A stretch of DNA of 64,000 bases from Escherichia coli (lineage in GTDB: Bacteria; Pseudomonadota; Gammaproteobacteria; Enterobacterales; Enterobacteriaceae). The stretch's first letter is position 1. Every line of letters starts with the position of its first letter. Below are positions 18,650 through 33,181 of this stretch, in pieces. The stretch lies in the NCBI RefSeq assembly GCF_051903065.1, contig NZ_CP178438.1; one strand, 5' to 3'. The notes under the pieces were generated by a model. That model was not told the origin of the DNA and did no database searches. It was given only the letters and a program-made list of their open reading frames with translations. The position numbers and the translations under genes were made by a program.

Positions 18650-18844
18650 TTTTTGGTCCTTCTCTGGTGTTGTCTGGGAAGTGTAGAGCATGGCAGGGCG
18701 GGGTGCCTGGAGTGTGACAAAGGTTACACATCGCTGTATGCAATGCTGAAAATTTCAGCACTTAGCAAAGTGGGTGCAAGCTGGCGCTTGCATGGTGGCG
18801 TGCGACAGGTATAATCCACAACGTTTTCCGCATACCTCTTCAGT

Positions 18845-18929
18845 GCCGAAGTGGCGAAATCGGTAGACGCAGTTGATTCAAAATCAACCGTAGAAATACG
18901 TGCCGGTTCGAGTCCGGCCTTCGGCACCA
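18845..18929 (+). tRNA. leuX: tRNA-Leu(CAA)
   Basis: GCCGAAGTGGCGAAATCGGTAGACGCAGTTGATTCAAAATCAACC...GGTTCGAGTCCGGCCTTCGGCACCA, 85 nt with long variable arm and encoded CCA. Confidence 0.97.
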
Positions 18930-18942
18930 AAAGTATGTAAAT

Positions 18943-18967
18943 AGACCTCAACTGAGGTCTTTTTTTA
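18943..18967 (+). terminator. Rho-independent terminator after leuX
   Basis: AGACCTCAACTGAGGTCT hairpin followed by 7 T. Confidence 0.65.
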
Positions 18968-19115
18968 TGCCTGAAATCCAGTGTTTATCTACCTTTCCCG
19001 CTATATTAACTCTCTCAAGGTCAACCGATATCAACGTACATCTACCAACATATGTTGGTACAGATGATGGTATTTCCGGTTCGATAATGCTTGTACCAAC
19101 AGGGAGGGAATACGC

Positions 19116-20381
19116 ATGGCATTAACAGATATCAAAGTCAGAGCAGCCAAGCCAACGGATAAGCAATATAAGCTGACTGATGGTGGCGGTATGCATCTGC
19201 TTGTCCATCCAAATGGTTCTAAGTACTGGCGTTTGCAGTACCGTTATGAGGGAAAGCAAAAAATGCTGGCACTTGGGGTTTATCCTGAAATCACACTAGC
19301 GGATGCCAGAGTACGTCGTGACGAGGCGCGTAAGCTGCTTGCGAATGGCGTCGATCCGGGAGACAAAAAGAAAAATGATAAGGTTGAACAGAGTAAAGCA
19401 CGAACCTTTAAAGAAGTCGCGATTGAGTGGCATGGCACCAATAAAAAGTGGTCTGAAGATCACGCCCATCGTGTGCTAAAAAGTCTGGAAGATAATCTTT
19501 TTGCAGCGCTTGGTGAACGTAATATCGCTGAGTTAAAAACTCGAGATTTATTAGCACCCATTAAGGCCGTAGAAATGTCTGGACGTCTTGAAGTGGCCGC
19601 TCGTCTTCAGCAGCGCACTACAGCCATCATGCGCTATGCAGTGCAAAGTGGGTTAATTGATTATAACCCGGCACAAGAGATGGCTGGGGCGGTTGCTTCC
19701 TGTAATCGACAACATCGTCCCGCGCTTGAATTAAAGCGCATCCCTGAGTTGCTTACAAAAATAGATAGCTATACTGGTAGGCCGCTAACCCGATGGGCGA
19801 CAGAACTCTCTTTGCTGATCTTTATTCGGTCCAGTGAGCTGCGTTTTGCTCGTTGGTCAGAGATCGATTTCGAAGCGTCTATATGGACTATCCCACCGGA
19901 GCGGGAGCCTATTCCTGGAGTGAAACATTCCCATAGAGGCTCAAAAATGCGTACAACGCATCTAGTGCCTCTTTCAACGCAAGCTCTTGCAATTTTAAAG
20001 CAGATAAAACAGTTTTGTGGGGCCCATGACTTGATATTTATTGGTGATCACGATTCGCACAAACCCATGAGTGAGAATACGGTAAATAGTGCGTTACGGG
20101 TCATGGGGTATGATACAAAAGTAGAGGTTTGTGGTCATGGCTTTCGAACAATGGCCTGTAGTTCATTGGTCGAATCAGGTTTGTGGTCTCGTGATGCTGT
20201 TGAACGTCAGATGAGCCACATGGAGCGAAATTCAGTGAGGGCCGCGTATATCCATAAAGCAGAGCATCTGGAAGAACGCCGCTTGATGCTACAATGGTGG
20301 GCCGATTTTCTGGATGCAAACAGAGAAAAATTTATCAGTCCATTTGAATATGCAAAGATTAATAATCCATTAAAACAGTAA
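19116..20381 (+). CDS. int: P4-type tyrosine integrase
   Basis: 421-aa ORF next to tRNA; C-terminal catalytic region HGFRTMACSSL...RAAYIH. Confidence 0.9.
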   Translation: MALTDIKVRAAKPTDKQYKLTDGGGMHLLVHPNGSKYWRLQYRYEGKQKMLALGVYPEITLADARVRRDEARKLLANGVDPGDKKKNDKVEQSKARTFKEVAIEWHGTNKKWSEDHAHRVLKSLEDNLFAALGERNIAELKTRDLLAPIKAVEMSGRLEVAARLQQRTTAIMRYAVQSGLIDYNPAQEMAGAVASCNRQHRPALELKRIPELLTKIDSYTGRPLTRWATELSLLIFIRSSELRFARWSEIDFEASIWTIPPEREPIPGVKHSHRGSKMRTTHLVPLSTQALAILKQIKQFCGAHDLIFIGDHDSHKPMSENTVNSALRVMGYDTKVEVCGHGFRTMACSSLVESGLWSRDAVERQMSHMERNSVRAAYIHKAEHLEERRLMLQWWADFLDANREKFISPFEYAKINNPLKQ

Positions 20382-20704
20382 TCATCCCGGGCAAATGCCC
20401 GGGAACTTACTCCATGAATATTTTCTTTGTTAAAAAGGCAAAACGATATTAACTGATGTATTAAATGTTTACCGGATTGCTCCCTGCAGGTGGATTATCA
20501 GAATCCGCAGTTATTCGTTATTTATATATATTCAATAAAAAGAAACATCATAAAAAATCCCGCACCCACAGGGTGATGCGGGATAACTGACGTAAGGAAT
20601 GTTACCGGGATTTGGTGGTCCCTTGTGCTGATATGAATACAGGTTCTATTCTATACAGAATCCTTTTCAGTACAAGAGACTGTATTACAGTTTGCCATAT
20701 ATGA

Positions 20705-27780: not shown

Positions 27781-30165
27781 ATGCACGAAAAGAACATCGC
27801 CCTGCTTTGTGATGAAGCCGACCGACTTTTGCAACTGAACATTAATCTGCTCCGGCAAATGGTTGATGAACCGGATGTGTTATCTGACAGTAAGAACGAA
27901 AACAGACTGCTTTTCGATAAACAGAAAGCACTGAAAAGAATTGAGGAGCTGGAGGGCGAACAAATCAAAACCGCCCGCAGGGAGATGGTGCTGGCTGTTG
28001 TCGGCACGATGAAAGCAGGTAAATCAACTACCATCAACGCCATTGTGGGGCAGGAAATTCTGCCTAACCGTAACCGCCCCATGACCTCTGTACCGACGCT
28101 CATCCGCCACGTTCCCGGAAAAACTGAGCCGGTCCTCCATCTGGAACATATTCAGCCCGTCCGCAATTTATTAAGCACACTGCAACAAAAACTCGACACC
28201 CCGGCAGGACAGCAAGTCGCACAGACCCTGCAGCAAACCGGGGATACCTGCGAACTGCTGGATATTCTGGCAAATGATGGCTGGCTCAAAAATGAATACC
28301 ACGGGGAGGAGGAAATCTTTACCGGACTGGCATCGTTAAACGATCTGGTTCGCCTTGCTGCGGCAATGGGGAGTGAGTTTCCTTTTGATGAATACGCAGA
28401 AGTGCAGAAACTGCCGGTGATCGACGTGGAATTCAGCCATCTGGTGGGGATGGATGCATGCCAGGGAACACTCACACTGCTGGATACCCCCGGCCCTAAT
28501 GAGGCCGGACAACCGCAGATGGAAGTGATGATGCGGGATCAACTGCAGAAAGCCTCTGCGGTGCTGGCGGTGATGGATTACACCCAGATGAACTCAAAAG
28601 CGGATGAAGACGTCCGTAAAGAGCTTAATGCCATTGCTGACGTATCAGCCGGCCGCCTGTTTGTGCTGGTCAATAAATTTGATGAGAAAGACCGCAATGG
28701 CGATGGGGCAGATGCCGTACGCCAGAAAGTTCCGGCAATGCTGAACAGTGATGTGCTGCCCGCCTCCCGCGTTTATCCAGGCTCATCACGTCAGGCGTAC
28801 CTGGCTAACCGTGCGCTTCATGAGTTACGGAAAAACGGAACCCTTCCTGTTGATGAAGCCTGGGTCGATGATTTTGTCAGGGAAGCCTTCGGTCGCATGA
28901 AAAAAGAATACGTCTGTAAAGACAGTGAAATGGCAACCGAAGGGGCGACAGACCTGTGGGAAGGTTCACTTATCGATCAACTGATAACGGAAGTCATACA
29001 GAGCTCCCATTCCAGAGCGGCGGCACTGGCGGTTGATTCTGCCGCCGCAAAACTGATGCAGAATGCGGAAAATGTCAGCGAATATCTGTCATTACGCCAT
29101 CAGGGGCTACAGCAAAGCATTCAGTCACTGCAGGCGCATATCTCCAGCCTGCTGGCGGATATCCGGGAAATCGCGGACTGTCAGGAGCAGGTGACCGCAG
29201 ATGTCAGAATGGCTATGGAGGAGATCGATACTAAAACCCGGGAATTACTGACGGGGGTCTGCACCTCACTGGAAGAGGAGCTGAATGACTATTTCAGAAG
29301 CGGTAAACGCAAAGAACAGCAAATGCTGGAGGAAGAAAATTCAGCGCAGCCCCGGGAGAGAAACGCATTCGCTTTCTTTCACGATATTTTCGGAACCGGA
29401 AATCAGCATGACAGGATGCGGGACTTTGATCCGGACAGCCCCGAAATAAAATTCAGTGATCGCAGGGAAGCCCTTGAACTGATGACGCAAATCGAATCGA
29501 CCGTGACCAGCCTGCACCGTGAGGCTGAAGCACAGTTCCGTCCTGAACTGGAAAAAATCGTCAGGGGTATTGAAACAGGTTTTCGTGGTACGGCCCTGTA
29601 CGCCACAGAAAATATTGCCGGACGCATCAATGCCCGTCTGGAGGATGAAGGTTTCACTGTAAAAATCAGTTTTCCGGCAGTCAGCCAGTTACAGACCCGG
29701 CTCGCAGTAAAAACAAATCTGAGCGCGCTTATGGAGGAAAGAACGGAGACCGTCACTCGTCGCTGTCGACAGGATGGTGTCTGGGGTACGCTTTGTCGAT
29801 GGGCAAACACCAGTGACTGGGGCTGGAAAGAGTACAGTGTGGATGTGAGCCGCAGCGTGATCAATATCAACAAGGTCAGAGAGGAAGTGATGTCACTGAC
29901 CCGGGCATATTTCGGGGAGCTGCAGGCATCCATTGAGCAGGATATTAACCAGCCCGTCCGCCAGGAAATCGATGCCTTTTTCTGCGCATTCAGGGAGAAA
30001 GTTGAACAACTGCGTAACACGCTGATTCAGAGCTCTGAAGATCGTAAACGCGATCAGCAGGCGCAGGAACGGCTTACCGGGCGACTTCAGGCATTAAATG
30101 AAAGGGTTCCTGAGCTCATTACTGACAGTAAGGCGCTGAGGGAAGAGCTGGAGACAATGCTGTGA
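27781..30165 (+). CDS. Dynamin-like GTPase, CrfC/YjdA paralog
   Basis: 794 aa; G1 motif VVGTMKAGKSTTINAIVG, LDTPGPNE, VLVNKFDEKD; long coiled-coil C-terminal half; RBS AGGAAGG upstream. Confidence 0.85.
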   Translation: MHEKNIALLCDEADRLLQLNINLLRQMVDEPDVLSDSKNENRLLFDKQKALKRIEELEGEQIKTARREMVLAVVGTMKAGKSTTINAIVGQEILPNRNRPMTSVPTLIRHVPGKTEPVLHLEHIQPVRNLLSTLQQKLDTPAGQQVAQTLQQTGDTCELLDILANDGWLKNEYHGEEEIFTGLASLNDLVRLAAAMGSEFPFDEYAEVQKLPVIDVEFSHLVGMDACQGTLTLLDTPGPNEAGQPQMEVMMRDQLQKASAVLAVMDYTQMNSKADEDVRKELNAIADVSAGRLFVLVNKFDEKDRNGDGADAVRQKVPAMLNSDVLPASRVYPGSSRQAYLANRALHELRKNGTLPVDEAWVDDFVREAFGRMKKEYVCKDSEMATEGATDLWEGSLIDQLITEVIQSSHSRAAALAVDSAAAKLMQNAENVSEYLSLRHQGLQQSIQSLQAHISSLLADIREIADCQEQVTADVRMAMEEIDTKTRELLTGVCTSLEEELNDYFRSGKRKEQQMLEEENSAQPRERNAFAFFHDIFGTGNQHDRMRDFDPDSPEIKFSDRREALELMTQIESTVTSLHREAEAQFRPELEKIVRGIETGFRGTALYATENIAGRINARLEDEGFTVKISFPAVSQLQTRLAVKTNLSALMEERTETVTRRCRQDGVWGTLCRWANTSDWGWKEYSVDVSRSVININKVREEVMSLTRAYFGELQASIEQDINQPVRQEIDAFFCAFREKVEQLRNTLIQSSEDRKRDQQAQERLTGRLQALNERVPELITDSKALREELETML

Positions 30166-31067
30166 CTTCACCATTTATTCAACAAATTGCTGATAACCGG
30201 GTATGTCAGGTACTCACCTGTCTTCCTGAAAAATTTGTGGTTGATTTCGCAAACGGAATCGATGTTGCACAGGAGCATATCCGCACGGCCGGAGAGCGCA
30301 CGTTCTTCCGGCGTTTAAAAGAGGGGATGACCGGCGAAGGCGCTGCACGGCAGAATGCCATCAATGCTTCGCTTGCACAGGGCGTTGAGGCGTCCCTGCG
30401 CTGGCTGACGGAGCTGACAACGTCACTTGCCACCACAAACTACGCGATTACCCGGGTAAACGACAGGGTCAGTTCACTGGTCAGTGATACTGCCAGGCTG
30501 GCGCATTATTCGGCTGACACGCGGGAGCAGTTACTCACCCTGGCCGATCAGGTTCACCAGAAACTGAATCATCTTGAAGAAAAACTCCACCGTGTTGACC
30601 AGGTTCAGCGGGCGCAGTTACATCTTGAGCAGATATTCTCATGGTGGAGCGCCGGGCGATATGCGTCATTTTCCCCTGCCGGACGTTGTTATGTGGCACT
30701 TGAAGAGCTTCGCTGGGGCGCGTTTGGTGATGTGATACGCCAGGGCGAAACAGGCCAGGTTAACCAGCTACTGGATATTCTCAGACATAAAGCATTAACG
30801 CAGATGGCACAGGAGAGTGGCGGTAGTGCAACCGTGCGTCTGAACACTCTGGACTGGCTTGGTGGTCAGGGCCGGGAGCAGGCAGATAACGAGTGGCATG
30901 ACGCGATTAACTGGCTGGGGGACTGGTGCAGTGAAGAGCAGCATCCGGTGATCTGGTCAACCACGCAGGCTGCAGAACACTTACCGGTTCGCATGCCTCG
31001 CCTCTGCTCTGCAGAACGCCTCTCTGAAAGTATGGTCGATGAAATATTTCAGAAGGGGGCAGCATGA
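30162..31067 (+). CDS. YjcZ-like protein (partner of the dynamin-like GTPase)
   Basis: GTG start overlapping upstream stop; N-terminus resembles K-12 YjcZ as recalled (LPEKFVVDFANGIDV.QEHIRTAGERTFFRRLK). Confidence 0.7.
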   Translation: MTSPFIQQIADNRVCQVLTCLPEKFVVDFANGIDVAQEHIRTAGERTFFRRLKEGMTGEGAARQNAINASLAQGVEASLRWLTELTTSLATTNYAITRVNDRVSSLVSDTARLAHYSADTREQLLTLADQVHQKLNHLEEKLHRVDQVQRAQLHLEQIFSWWSAGRYASFSPAGRCYVALEELRWGAFGDVIRQGETGQVNQLLDILRHKALTQMAQESGGSATVRLNTLDWLGGQGREQADNEWHDAINWLGDWCSEEQHPVIWSTTQAAEHLPVRMPRLCSAERLSESMVDEIFQKGAA

Positions 31068-32134
31068 GTACAGAAATGAAAACGGGGCTGGTGCTGTCCG
31101 GCGGCGGGGCGGTGGGCGCTTATCAGGCAGGTGTGGTTAAGGCACTGGCAGAGTGTGGCACACAGATCAGCATGGTTTCAGGGGCCAGCATTGGCGCATT
31201 CAATGGTGCCATTATCGCGGCCTCTCCCGATCTGTCAGAAGCAGCCGCACGCCTGGAGGCGCTCTGGAAGCATCTGGGGAATAATCAGGTGCTGTCGGTA
31301 AACCGATCGGTTTACTTTTCATTGCTGAAAAAAATGGTTCAGGCCATGAACCTCTGCCAGATCCCCGGACGTGCAGGAGCACTGCTTACGACACTTCTTC
31401 GCCATATATCGATAATCAACGGCTTCGACAATCCGATGGCTCAGCCGCTGTTGTCAGATGAGCCTCTGACAGCGCTGTTGGATCATTATCTTGATACTGA
31501 TGCTCTGGCAGACGGGCTACCGCTGTATGTGTCGCTGTACCCCACAGAAGGGGGCATGCAGGATATTATTGACTGCATTCGTGCTGAACTGGGTGCCGGA
31601 ACCACGAAAAACGCCGTTTTTCAGCATATCCAGAGCCTGCCCCGCGGACAGCAGAAAGAGGCTCTGCTTGCGTCAGCCGCGCTGCCCCTGCTGTTCCGTC
31701 CCCGTGAGGTTCAGGGGACAATGTTCGGTGATGGTGGTATGGGAGGATGGCGAAATATGCAGGGAAATACCCCTGTGACGCCTCTGGTCGATGCCGGATG
31801 CAATATGGTGATTGTGACGCATCTGAGTGACGGTTCTTTATGGGATCGCCAGGCTTTTCCGGACACCACAATCCTTGAGATCCGTCCCCGGAAAAGGCTG
31901 AAATATGCAGGTGATGGTGGCAACAGCGGCGGTCTGCTCAGTTTCACGTTGGCACATACCGACGCCTGGCGTCAGCAGGGCTATGAAGACACGATGCTGA
32001 CGATGGAGCATATCCGGAAACCGCTGGCAGCACGTCAGGTACTGTCCCGGTCAGAAACGGTGTTGCAGAAAAGTCTGGAGATAACGGAAGAGGCAGATTT
32101 GGCACTGAGAAACGCGATGGCCCGGATTAAATAA
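31064..32134 (+). CDS. Patatin-like phospholipase
   Basis: ATGA start/stop overlap with upstream gene; Gly-rich loop LSGGGAVGAYQAG, nucleophile elbow GASIG (GxSxG), DGG motif in FGDGGMGG. Confidence 0.85.
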   Translation: MSTEMKTGLVLSGGGAVGAYQAGVVKALAECGTQISMVSGASIGAFNGAIIAASPDLSEAAARLEALWKHLGNNQVLSVNRSVYFSLLKKMVQAMNLCQIPGRAGALLTTLLRHISIINGFDNPMAQPLLSDEPLTALLDHYLDTDALADGLPLYVSLYPTEGGMQDIIDCIRAELGAGTTKNAVFQHIQSLPRGQQKEALLASAALPLLFRPREVQGTMFGDGGMGGWRNMQGNTPVTPLVDAGCNMVIVTHLSDGSLWDRQAFPDTTILEIRPRKRLKYAGDGGNSGGLLSFTLAHTDAWRQQGYEDTMLTMEHIRKPLAARQVLSRSETVLQKSLEITEEADLALRNAMARIK

Positions 32135-32464
32135 AGACGCCCCAAAGAAACGCCACCGCCTGTGGTGGTGTTTTTCCTGTCTGGTGTTATTGAAAATATT
32201 TTCAGACATATATTACCTGAGAGAAAGTTTTACCCCTCATCTGTCAATTCACTCACTGGAAATTTAATTATGAAATTACCTGTAAAGTTATTAATGAGCC
32301 TTATATCTCTGGTAAGCGTTATTGCACGTGCCGGGGAATATAAAAATTACAGCCGGGATGAAATAAAATACTGGCGATATACATCATACAAGGGGTGGAA
32401 ACTTCCGGAAGGTTTCACTGATGAGAAATTTTCCAGCGCCATTTACAACGGAAGAATATTTACA

Positions 32465-32953
32465 ATGAAACGTTTACATACCCTTATGTTATTTCTGGCG
32501 GTTCTGTTCACGGGCTTTAACTTTAACGCAGAAGCGGCTACCGTAAAACAAGCTCTTAGTTGTAACCCAGAAGCCTGGGCTGAACAACCTGGAGCGTGTC
32601 CATCAACGTACGAGTTGTACGAAGGTGACGCTACCTACAAAGCCGCTATCGACAAAGCATTAAAACCGGTCGGACTGAGCGGCATGTTCGGTAAAGGCGG
32701 CTATATGGATGGCCCTGGTGGAGGTATCACGCCAGTAAACATTAACGGTACAGTCTGGTTCCAGGGCGACGGTTGCAAAGCCAATACCTGCGGCTGGGAC
32801 TTTATCGTAACACTCTATAACCCAAAAACCCATGAAGTTGTTGGCTACCGTTACTTTGGTTTAGATGACCCGGCCTACCTGGTTTGGTTCGGTGAAATTG
32901 GCGTGCATGAATTCGCGTATCTGGTGAAAAACTACGTAGCTGCGGTTAACTAA
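32465..32953 (+). CDS. Secreted protein, possibly Ivy-like (lysozyme-inhibitor fold); alternative upstream in-frame start at 32270
   Basis: Signal peptide MKRLHTLMLFLAVLFTGFNFNAEA; GDGCKANTCGWDF loop resembling the Ivy CKPHDCG loop; second signal-peptide-like segment in frame upstream. Confidence 0.4.
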   Translation: MKRLHTLMLFLAVLFTGFNFNAEAATVKQALSCNPEAWAEQPGACPSTYELYEGDATYKAAIDKALKPVGLSGMFGKGGYMDGPGGGITPVNINGTVWFQGDGCKANTCGWDFIVTLYNPKTHEVVGYRYFGLDDPAYLVWFGEIGVHEFAYLVKNYVAAVN

Positions 32954-32968
32954 TTTAAGGAGTCTATC

Positions 32969-33181
32969 ATGAAAACTTTTATCAAAACTTTACTCGTTGC
33001 TGTAACTATTCTGTTCTCTGTCTTCGCTACTGCGAAACAAGTAAAACTGCCAAATAACATCAAATACGTTAATACTACAGAAGCGTTTTCCTGTACCGAA
33101 ATTGACGGTATGAATTGCCAGACAAAGAATCAGTTCAACTATAAAGATAACAGCTATGTGGTGATGCTGCCAACTTACTGA
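32969..33181 (+). pseudogene. Small secreted-protein gene truncated by IS1 (last 6 codons and stop lie in the IS1 terminal repeat)
   Basis: Signal peptide MKTFIKTLLVAVTILFSVFATA; frame runs into GGTGATGCTGCCAACTTACTGA of IS1. Confidence 0.5.

Follow-up and report, generated by a model that had tools for sequence, protein, structure and literature searches.

The stretch analyzed here is a 64,000-nucleotide window of the Escherichia coli chromosome (contig NZ_CP178438.1), 100% identical over the query to record NZ_CP136025.1, in which the Prokaryotic Genome Annotation Pipeline (PGAP) places a single 227-residue hypothetical protein at 32270-32953 (WP_000775505.1 in that record). We find that this locus probably holds a single functional gene, encoding a protein related to the lysozyme inhibitor Ivy, preceded by the remnant of another gene that has become fused to it. 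The functional gene most likely spans 32465..32953 and would encode a 162-residue preprotein with a 138-residue mature form, an assignment based on the starts of homologs, on the ratio of nonsynonymous to synonymous substitution rates (dN/dS) and on profile and fold matches to Ivy, and the 227-residue model is most likely an over-extension to the longest open reading frame (ORF). The double signal peptide of that model is an ordinary by-product of a deletion combined with longest-ORF annotation. Behind the model stands a polymorphic gene that is new to the Ivy superfamily, had gone unannotated and encodes a non-canonical loop; one preprint has already flagged it. All coordinates refer to the + strand of the window.

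Two Signal Peptides in One Reading Frame

The frame in question is open from 32162 to 32953 (GTG start, 263 residues), without a stop between the ATG at 32270 and the ATG at 32465. Two successive signal-peptide-like stretches had been described in it by the original prediction, which was made from the sequence alone, and both are found, at residues 1-21 and 66-89 of the 227-residue product. Signal peptides were called by the classical n-, h- and c-region rules together with a hydropathy scan, which gave exactly two hydrophobic cores, at residues 5-21 and 69-85, each with Lys or Arg before it and an A-x-A site after it; both candidate N termini have the basic n-region, the core and the cleavage motif of a signal peptide. 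The first segment (MKLPVKLLMSLISLVSVIARA, continuing GEY; 32270..32332) comes from the truncated upstream gene. The second (MKRLHTLMLFLAVLFTGFNFNAEA, continuing ATV; 32465..32536) is native to the Ivy-like gene, with KR, a 13-residue hydrophobic core and a predicted cleavage after AEA, and this segment, which is N-terminal in all short homologs, has an in-frame upstream extension in the window.

The Start of the Ivy-like Gene

Two products could be made from this frame. In one account the 227-residue fusion is itself functional and membrane-associated, its first signal peptide being cleaved or serving as an anchor while the second segment holds the Ivy-like domain at the inner membrane. This matches the PGAP annotation and the reading of the helices as a transmembrane domain in the preprint (bioRxiv 10.1101/2024.04.20.590424), and the in-frame form is the commonest by far, with 1266 plus 44 exact matches for the two in-frame versions of a polymorphic G-tract in the remnant (G7 and G4TG2) as against ∼70 for out-of-frame versions. 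We nevertheless judge it improbable. By the topology rules for Sec substrates, an N-in/C-out first segment would put the cysteine-rich domain in the cytoplasm, where its two disulfides would not form, and the comparative evidence favors ATG 32465 as the true start.

A database search with the 227-residue product returned two length classes, one of 223-227 residues that carries the extension and one of 160-161 residues, whose members begin with MKRL at the equivalent Met and share 58-81% identity with the distal part. Outside the fused lineage every homolog, including all the diverged ones, has its signal peptide at the N terminus. The upstream segment is also found disabled with the downstream gene left whole. 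Among the compared loci that carry relatives of the window gene (L002-L025), L008 and L009 have a TGG>TGA nonsense change in the remnant and an intact 161-residue gene downstream, the out-of-frame strains checked (tract lengths G6, G8 and G9) have an ORF identical to that of the window at 162/162 residues, and the same 162/162 identity is kept in L024, where the insertion sequence (IS) IS1 removed the upstream start.

The two parts of the frame differ in their substitutions as well. The Ivy-like gene has a dN/dS of 0.11-0.26 at a dS of 0.2-2.4, values that indicate strong purifying selection. For the remnant (65 codons) dN/dS is about 1 or higher, at 0.97-2.25 from very few substitutions (Sd 1-3, Nd 7-16), and together with the nonsense allele this indicates a segment without purifying selection in which disabling mutations are tolerated. 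The intact parents of the remnant have the Shine-Dalgarno sequence AAGGAG, whereas the remnant start has only a weak GGAA, and in the AlphaFold model of the 227-residue product residues 1-90 are of low confidence (predicted local distance difference test, pLDDT, of 36-62), whereas the rest exceeds 85.

Given these comparisons, we place the functional start at ATG 32465 with good confidence. The working product would then be the 162-residue preprotein initiated there, exported by its own Sec signal peptide and cleaved after AEA24, and periplasmic oxidation would convert it to a 138-residue Ivy-fold protein with two disulfides. Were 32270 used at all, translation would yield a 227-residue chimera in which the second hydrophobic segment lies internally, wrongly oriented for cleavage by signal peptidase, and this chimera would probably be mislocalised.

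Origin of the Upstream Segment

The original prediction had offered either a leader or remnant upstream of the true start or a fusion of two small secreted-protein genes, and both turn out to hold together. As judged from BLASTP, DNA alignment, dN/dS and the disabling alleles, the segment at 32270..32458 is the 5′ remnant (codons 1-63) of a gene for a 180-residue secreted protein, fused in frame to the Ivy-like gene by an old deletion of ∼0.9 kb. Residues 1-65 were compared with the intact 180-residue protein of L002, giving a gapless BLASTP alignment with 51% identity over residues 1-63 (E 5e-20), in which the first signal peptide MKLPVKLLMSLISLVSVIARA lies against MKFIVKALIYLAVMLSFTANA, the signal peptide of the intact parent gene. 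In the short-form loci L002-L005 the 180-residue gene sits between a patatin-like gene and the 160-residue gene, and intact arrangements are present in L002-L005, L022/L023, L006 and L011-13. The 180-residue parent has no Pfam match.

The DNA alignment locates the junction. The window is collinear with the 180-residue gene up to ...TACAACGGAAGAATA, after which there is a gap of ∼0.9 kb to TTTACA-ATG, and homology with the parent ends after codon 63 (ATA, 32456-32458). Comparison with L011 (...ggagaatttacaATG) and L002 (...aaggaatttataATG) shows how the window sequence (...ggaagaatatttacaATG) is composed over the junction and ribosome-binding region of the Ivy-like gene at 32450..32464: GGAAGA (32450-32455) comes from remnant codons, and TTTACA (32459-32464) is the native 5′-untranslated region of the Ivy-like gene, these last 6 nucleotides 5′ of ATG 32465 being identical to those in L011. 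The junction falls in a short GGA(A)GAAT similarity, and the same sequence supplies a Shine-Dalgarno-like GGAAGA 9 nucleotides upstream of ATG 32465. What was lost extends from codon 64 of the 180-residue gene to 6 nucleotides before the Ivy-like ATG and comprises the last two-thirds of that gene together with an ∼130-residue gene, the latter intact in L006 and L011 and a frameshifted pseudogene (128-residue gene) in L002. On these alignments the ancestral island had, after the patatin-like gene, a row of genes for the 180-residue, ∼130-residue, 160-residue Ivy-like and 136-residue secreted proteins.

The double signal peptide arises because the in-frame deletion fused the remnant to the Ivy-like gene, so that the first gene's signal peptide and 42 further codons read straight into the second gene's own signal peptide, and the first 195 nucleotides are free of stops because the native frame of the truncated gene was retained. 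The arrangement is not a chance pattern but a consequence of that deletion; the prior for an in-frame junction is one in three. The remnant is present in 2283 of 5426 complete E. coli genomes and the deleted segment is kept in only 40 of them, so the deleted form is the common one in this species.

The G-tract in the Remnant

The frame of the remnant relative to the downstream gene is set by an interrupted G-tract, GGGGTGG, at 32392..32398. Other strains have a pure tract of G6-G9, up to about G12, and this length polymorphism can change the reading frame. Exact matches among the 5426 complete genomes numbered 1266 for G7 (in frame), 44 for G4TG2, 26 for G6, 42 for G8 and 1-2 for G9, the last of which was also found in 113 blocks of a protein-position index. 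Frameshifted remnants occur in L014-17, L024 and L025, and PGAP labels such out-of-frame versions "frameshifted" pseudogenes although the 162-residue ORF is intact in them.

These variants raise the question of whether the remnant is a translated leader in which poly-G slippage gives a phase-variable switch of Ivy-like expression. In the in-frame state ribosomes would pass the internal ATG and little correct product would be made; out of frame, the stop of the leader would couple translation into the Ivy-like gene. Besides the differences in tract length among strains, this accords with the G6 and G9 variants, in which the remnant ORF stops at a TGA that overlaps the Ivy-like ATG (ATGA). The G8 remnant ORF, however, ends early and has no such overlap, out-of-frame alleles are rare (∼5%), some of the length variants may be assembly errors, and the tract of the window is interrupted and so should be stable. 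Poly-G tracts do not typically serve as contingency loci in E. coli. We therefore hold a phase-variable leader to be a very doubtful alternative to a remnant that is simply tolerated upstream of the functional gene. One allele type, that of P0002 (G9 followed by ATTTCC), was considered as a frameshift restored by selection and rejected: the intermediate P0006 (KGGEF) shows that point substitutions suffice, and hence the P0002-type allele is not evidence for frame maintenance.

As an RNA element or repeat the leader gave no Rfam match and only one short palindrome. This is a 24-nucleotide near-perfect palindrome, GTGGAAACTTCCGGAAGGTTTCAC, at 32395-32418, directly 3′ of the G-tract, and may form a hairpin in RNA or serve as a binding site for a protein.

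Relationship to Ivy

Single-sequence searches with the window protein gave little: the PDB returned noise only (E above 0.6), and there was no match in PHROGs or PADLOC. Its relatives connect it to Ivy. An exhaustive phmmer search found remote relatives of ∼150 residues with 25-38% identity, including P0090, P0092 and P0095 (E 3e-16 to 3e-13), whose class carries the loops CEAHNCG, CKPHACP, CQPHNCS and CEPHNCP. A tblastn search from the window protein reached genes on Klebsiella plasmids to which PGAP gives the name "Ivy family c-type lysozyme inhibitor" (E 8e-11), and the P0090 and P0099 clusters are named Ivy family by NCBI. Nineteen family sequences from the phmmer search were aligned (A3). 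Thirteen of the 19 match the Pfam Ivy family PF08816 (E ≤ 0.001), and the A3 profile matched only four structures in the PDB, all of them Ivy (1GPQ, 1XS0, 4PS6 and 1UUZ; E 4e-9 to 2e-8), and its two loop cysteines fall on those of the Ivy motif CKPHDC.

The AlphaFold (AF2) model of the 162-residue protein has a pLDDT of 87.7, with five strands plus helices and with low values in the signal peptide. A Foldseek search with this model placed Ivy structures in all of the top eight positions (probability 1.0, template-modeling score 0.63-0.72), the next match having an E above 1; a lack of structural similarity to Ivy, which would have counted against the original prediction, was thus looked for and not found. 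Because the profile, the intermediates and the fold all lead to Ivy, we assign the 162-residue protein, on sequence and model, to the Ivy superfamily as a divergent member. The suggested comparison with PliC/MliC found no counterpart, neither the sequence and profile searches nor the fold searches returning a match to these inhibitors.

Three further observations concern the wider family. Seven proteins of 490-1603 residues (P0098, P0105, P0106, P0112, P0113, P0115 and P0116) gave three to seven repeated matches to residues ∼96-144, that is, to the loop and two strands, which could represent an Ivy-like hairpin module or a compositional artefact. The P0090 cluster contains 314-residue relatives from Salmonella enterica with an ∼160-residue C-terminal extension after the Ivy-like domain ("prophage protein" in UniRef) as well as 156-residue versions. 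Some members of the P0015 cluster, the 160-residue E. coli family, are named "DNA polymerase III subunit gamma/tau" by UniRef, which looks like a propagated mis-annotation.

The Loop and the Cysteines

A loop reminiscent of the Ivy sequence CKPHDCG had been noticed in the distal part of the frame, and this holds for its position and cysteines but not for its sequence. The loop is CKANTC (GDGCKANTCGWDF; 32774..32791, with the Cys codons at 32774-32776 and 32789-32791), and its Cys104 and Cys109 are invariant in A3 and occupy the positions of the Ivy loop cysteines, from which a disulfide closing the loop may be inferred. Pro-His-Asp is absent from it. Other E. coli alleles have CKANAC, CKSNAC, CKAHAC or CKSDAC, and CKANTC is specific to the window-type allele among those compared. 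A second pair, Cys33...Cys45 (SCNPEAWAEQPGAC; 32561..32599), lies near the N terminus; both of its columns are at least 90% conserved in A3, and the match to Ivy begins only downstream of it.

The canonical motif CKPHDC is described as essential for lysozyme inhibition and as strictly conserved in 30 members of the family in a passage of PMC4262234, which cites Abergel 2007. With no Pro-His-Asp in the loop, the name "lysozyme inhibitor" is putative for the window protein.

Alleles and Genomic Setting

The remnant and the signal peptide (32270-32536) are nearly invariant between strains, whereas the mature part (32537-32953) differs at a dS of 0.2-1.2 (L018 and L020); between the window and L020 there is one difference in the upstream 195 nucleotides and a dS of 1.12 in the Ivy-like gene. 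So sharp a mosaic boundary suggests, at the level of sequence, that alleles have been replaced repeatedly, with a breakpoint within the codons of the signal peptide.

Across loci the Ivy-like gene is carried on mobile islands among genes for small secreted proteins (YfjT-like, 128, 136 and 129 residues), several of them in PHROG families with no assigned function. The gene for the 136-residue partner follows it in most loci and is full-length in L008, L011, L014, L018 and L020. In the window only the first ∼64 codons of that gene remain (32969..33159), interrupted by an IS1, the end of which starts at 33160, and the 70-residue ORF downstream of the Ivy-like gene (32969-33181) is this truncated partner (PHROG 8968, function not assigned). 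The genes usually found further downstream (DUF932, antirestriction and RadC) are missing in the window. Another mobile element, known from metagenome and Logan contigs (L006 2598-5309 and L011 2106-4309), has the YfjT-like, 128-residue, Ivy-like, 136-residue and 129-residue genes in a tight row, followed by one for an 834-residue SMC_N/AAA protein. Although the neighbors belong to PHROG families, the idea of a prophage gene found no support, a tblastn search with the Ivy-like protein giving no match in 50,697 phage records.

The locus lies within an integrative island that adjoins tRNA-Leu, ahr and yjgR and includes a tyrosine integrase; the integration region, at the tRNA-Leu gene, is at ∼18800-20400 of the window (4192444-4193980 of NZ_CP136025.1). 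Also on the island are genes for a phosphoethanolamine transferase and for an outer-membrane protein, as well as numerous IS fragments (IS1, IS3, IS5, IS110 and IS630). Upstream of the 227-residue ORF are a dynamin-family gene (27781-30165), an RdcB/YjcZ-family gene (30162-31067) and, directly preceding it, a gene for a patatin-like phospholipase (31064-32134, stop at 32134). Their overlapping ends are operon-like, and PADLOC gave only weak matches to this module (LeoBC, 3.6e-5; phospholipase effector, 2.9e-5), which may be of a membrane-remodelling or defence type. A terminator-like hairpin, CACCGCCTGTGGTGGTG plus TTTTT, follows the patatin-like gene at 32154..32175 in a region conserved between the window and L002, and a promoter scan of the + strand over 32170-32270 found no convincing σ70 promoter.

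Possible Function and Significance

The preprint that flagged the gene (PHAGEPACK; bioRxiv 10.1101/2024.04.20.590424) describes "Hypo_04657" of E. coli O121 ATCC BAA-2190, a protein in which an Ivy-like domain with the loop CKANTC is accompanied by a further helical "TM" region, reports that its knockdown by CRISPR interference (CRISPRi) raised the plating efficiency of T7, and proposes T7 lysozyme as the target. Likened by description and not by sequence, Hypo_04657 is very probably the same gene in its 227-residue annotation, one difference being that the helices are there read as the transmembrane domain of one protein, whereas in the window they are a pair of signal peptides, of which one derives from a truncated neighbor.

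By analogy with Ivy, the protruding C-x4-C loop of the mature protein would plug the active-site cleft of an enzyme that cleaves peptidoglycan glycan strands. The target enzyme, acting in the periplasm, may be a lytic transglycosylase or a muramidase of a phage or a competitor. T7 lysozyme works as an amidase in the cytoplasm; of the two, the T7 virion protein gp16, whose lytic-transglycosylase domain is active in the periplasm during entry, would seem the more plausible target. Because the loop is CKANTC and not CKPHDC, the target is probably not, or not only, a c-type lysozyme. Ivy proteins are stated to inhibit lytic transglycosylases as well as lysozyme in a passage of PMC3660660 that cites Clarke 2010.

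The Ivy-fold domain might also be no enzyme inhibitor at all, and act instead, for instance, in binding or as a scaffold in the periplasm, or as an orphan immunity-like protein whose partner is not a glycosidase. A loop without Pro-His-Asp, the extra N-terminal disulfide subdomain of the family, neighbors that are small secreted PHROG-family proteins without an assigned function, and the only weak inhibition of lytic transglycosylases by E. coli Ivy in vitro (PMC10139938) would all fit such a role. We think it unlikely, however, since the C-x4-C loop, its Lys and the Gly that follows are conserved at the exact Ivy position, the loops of remote members (CKPHAC, CEAHNC and CQPHNC) grade into that of Ivy, and the phage knockdown phenotype fits a cell-wall-enzyme target.

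If an inhibitor is retained as the preferred reading, a broader and decidedly tentative proposal can be made, namely that Ivy-fold proteins with a variable C-K-x-x-x-C loop are a polymorphic periplasmic defence against the peptidoglycan-cutting enzymes of phage virions (such as T7 gp16 with its lytic-transglycosylase domain), of competitors and of conjugation systems, with allele swapping, at a recombination breakpoint within the signal peptide, that would track the enemy enzymes and a poly-G leader that would modulate the amount of correctly exported protein.

A number of observations weigh against the account of the locus given here. The window protein matches no Pfam model (E ≤ 10) and no NCBIfam model (E ≤ 0.1), and its CKANTC loop departs from the His-containing CKPHDC motif. 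The remnant's dN/dS, as said, comes from very few substitutions. About 95% of genomes with identical flanks are in frame (G7 or G4TG2), a dominance that could mean that the frame is maintained, or merely shared recent ancestry, and some of the G6 and G8 tracts in "complete" genomes may be homopolymer sequencing errors. Finally, CRISPRi, the source of the preprint phenotype, is polar on the downstream 136-residue gene.

For annotation, the consequence is that the "hypothetical protein" model, carried by about 42% of the complete E. coli genomes, is probably a chimera extended too far upstream, and that strains with a frameshifted remnant carry a PGAP pseudogene label though the real gene is intact. 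In at least one functional-genomics study the two signal peptides appear to have been taken for a transmembrane domain. For biology, E. coli has a second, unannotated and highly polymorphic Ivy-superfamily gene, located on mobile islands, with an altered loop and a reported phage-related knockdown phenotype. As a candidate inhibitor, in the periplasm, of a non-vertebrate muramidase or a lytic transglycosylase, its product is concrete and readily testable, and it touches a long-standing question, the real purpose of Ivy-type proteins. The main value of the analysis lies in a correction of annotation across thousands of genomes and in a cheap, well-defined biochemical test.

Comparison with Known Systems

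Among secreted inhibitors of cell wall-cutting enzymes, T4 Spackle (gp61.3; PMC7650644), which inhibits the phage tail lysozyme gp5 in the periplasm, is a possible functional analogue, in that it is a small secreted protein of a mobile element that limits phage infection; it differs in having no sequence or fold relationship to the window protein and was absent from the fold search results. PliC/MliC (COG3895; PMC2267010) are likewise lysozyme inhibitors of the Gram-negative periplasm or anchored to the outer membrane, but they have another fold, an eight-stranded β-barrel. The closest comparison is with Ivy itself (E. coli YkfE and P. aeruginosa Ivyp1/Ivyp2; PF08816). The predicted preprotein, putatively periplasmic, is of similar size, with the same α/β fold in the model and profile-level homology, and the six-residue loop C-K-x-x-x-C followed by Gly is at the same position. 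In contrast to canonical Ivy, the loop in the window, CKANTC, has no His, and members of the family carry an additional Cys-x11-Cys segment near the N terminus. The gene, moreover, lies on a tRNA-Leu integrative island and not at the core ivy locus, is highly polymorphic (identity down to 58%, dS above 1), and is preceded by an in-frame gene remnant.

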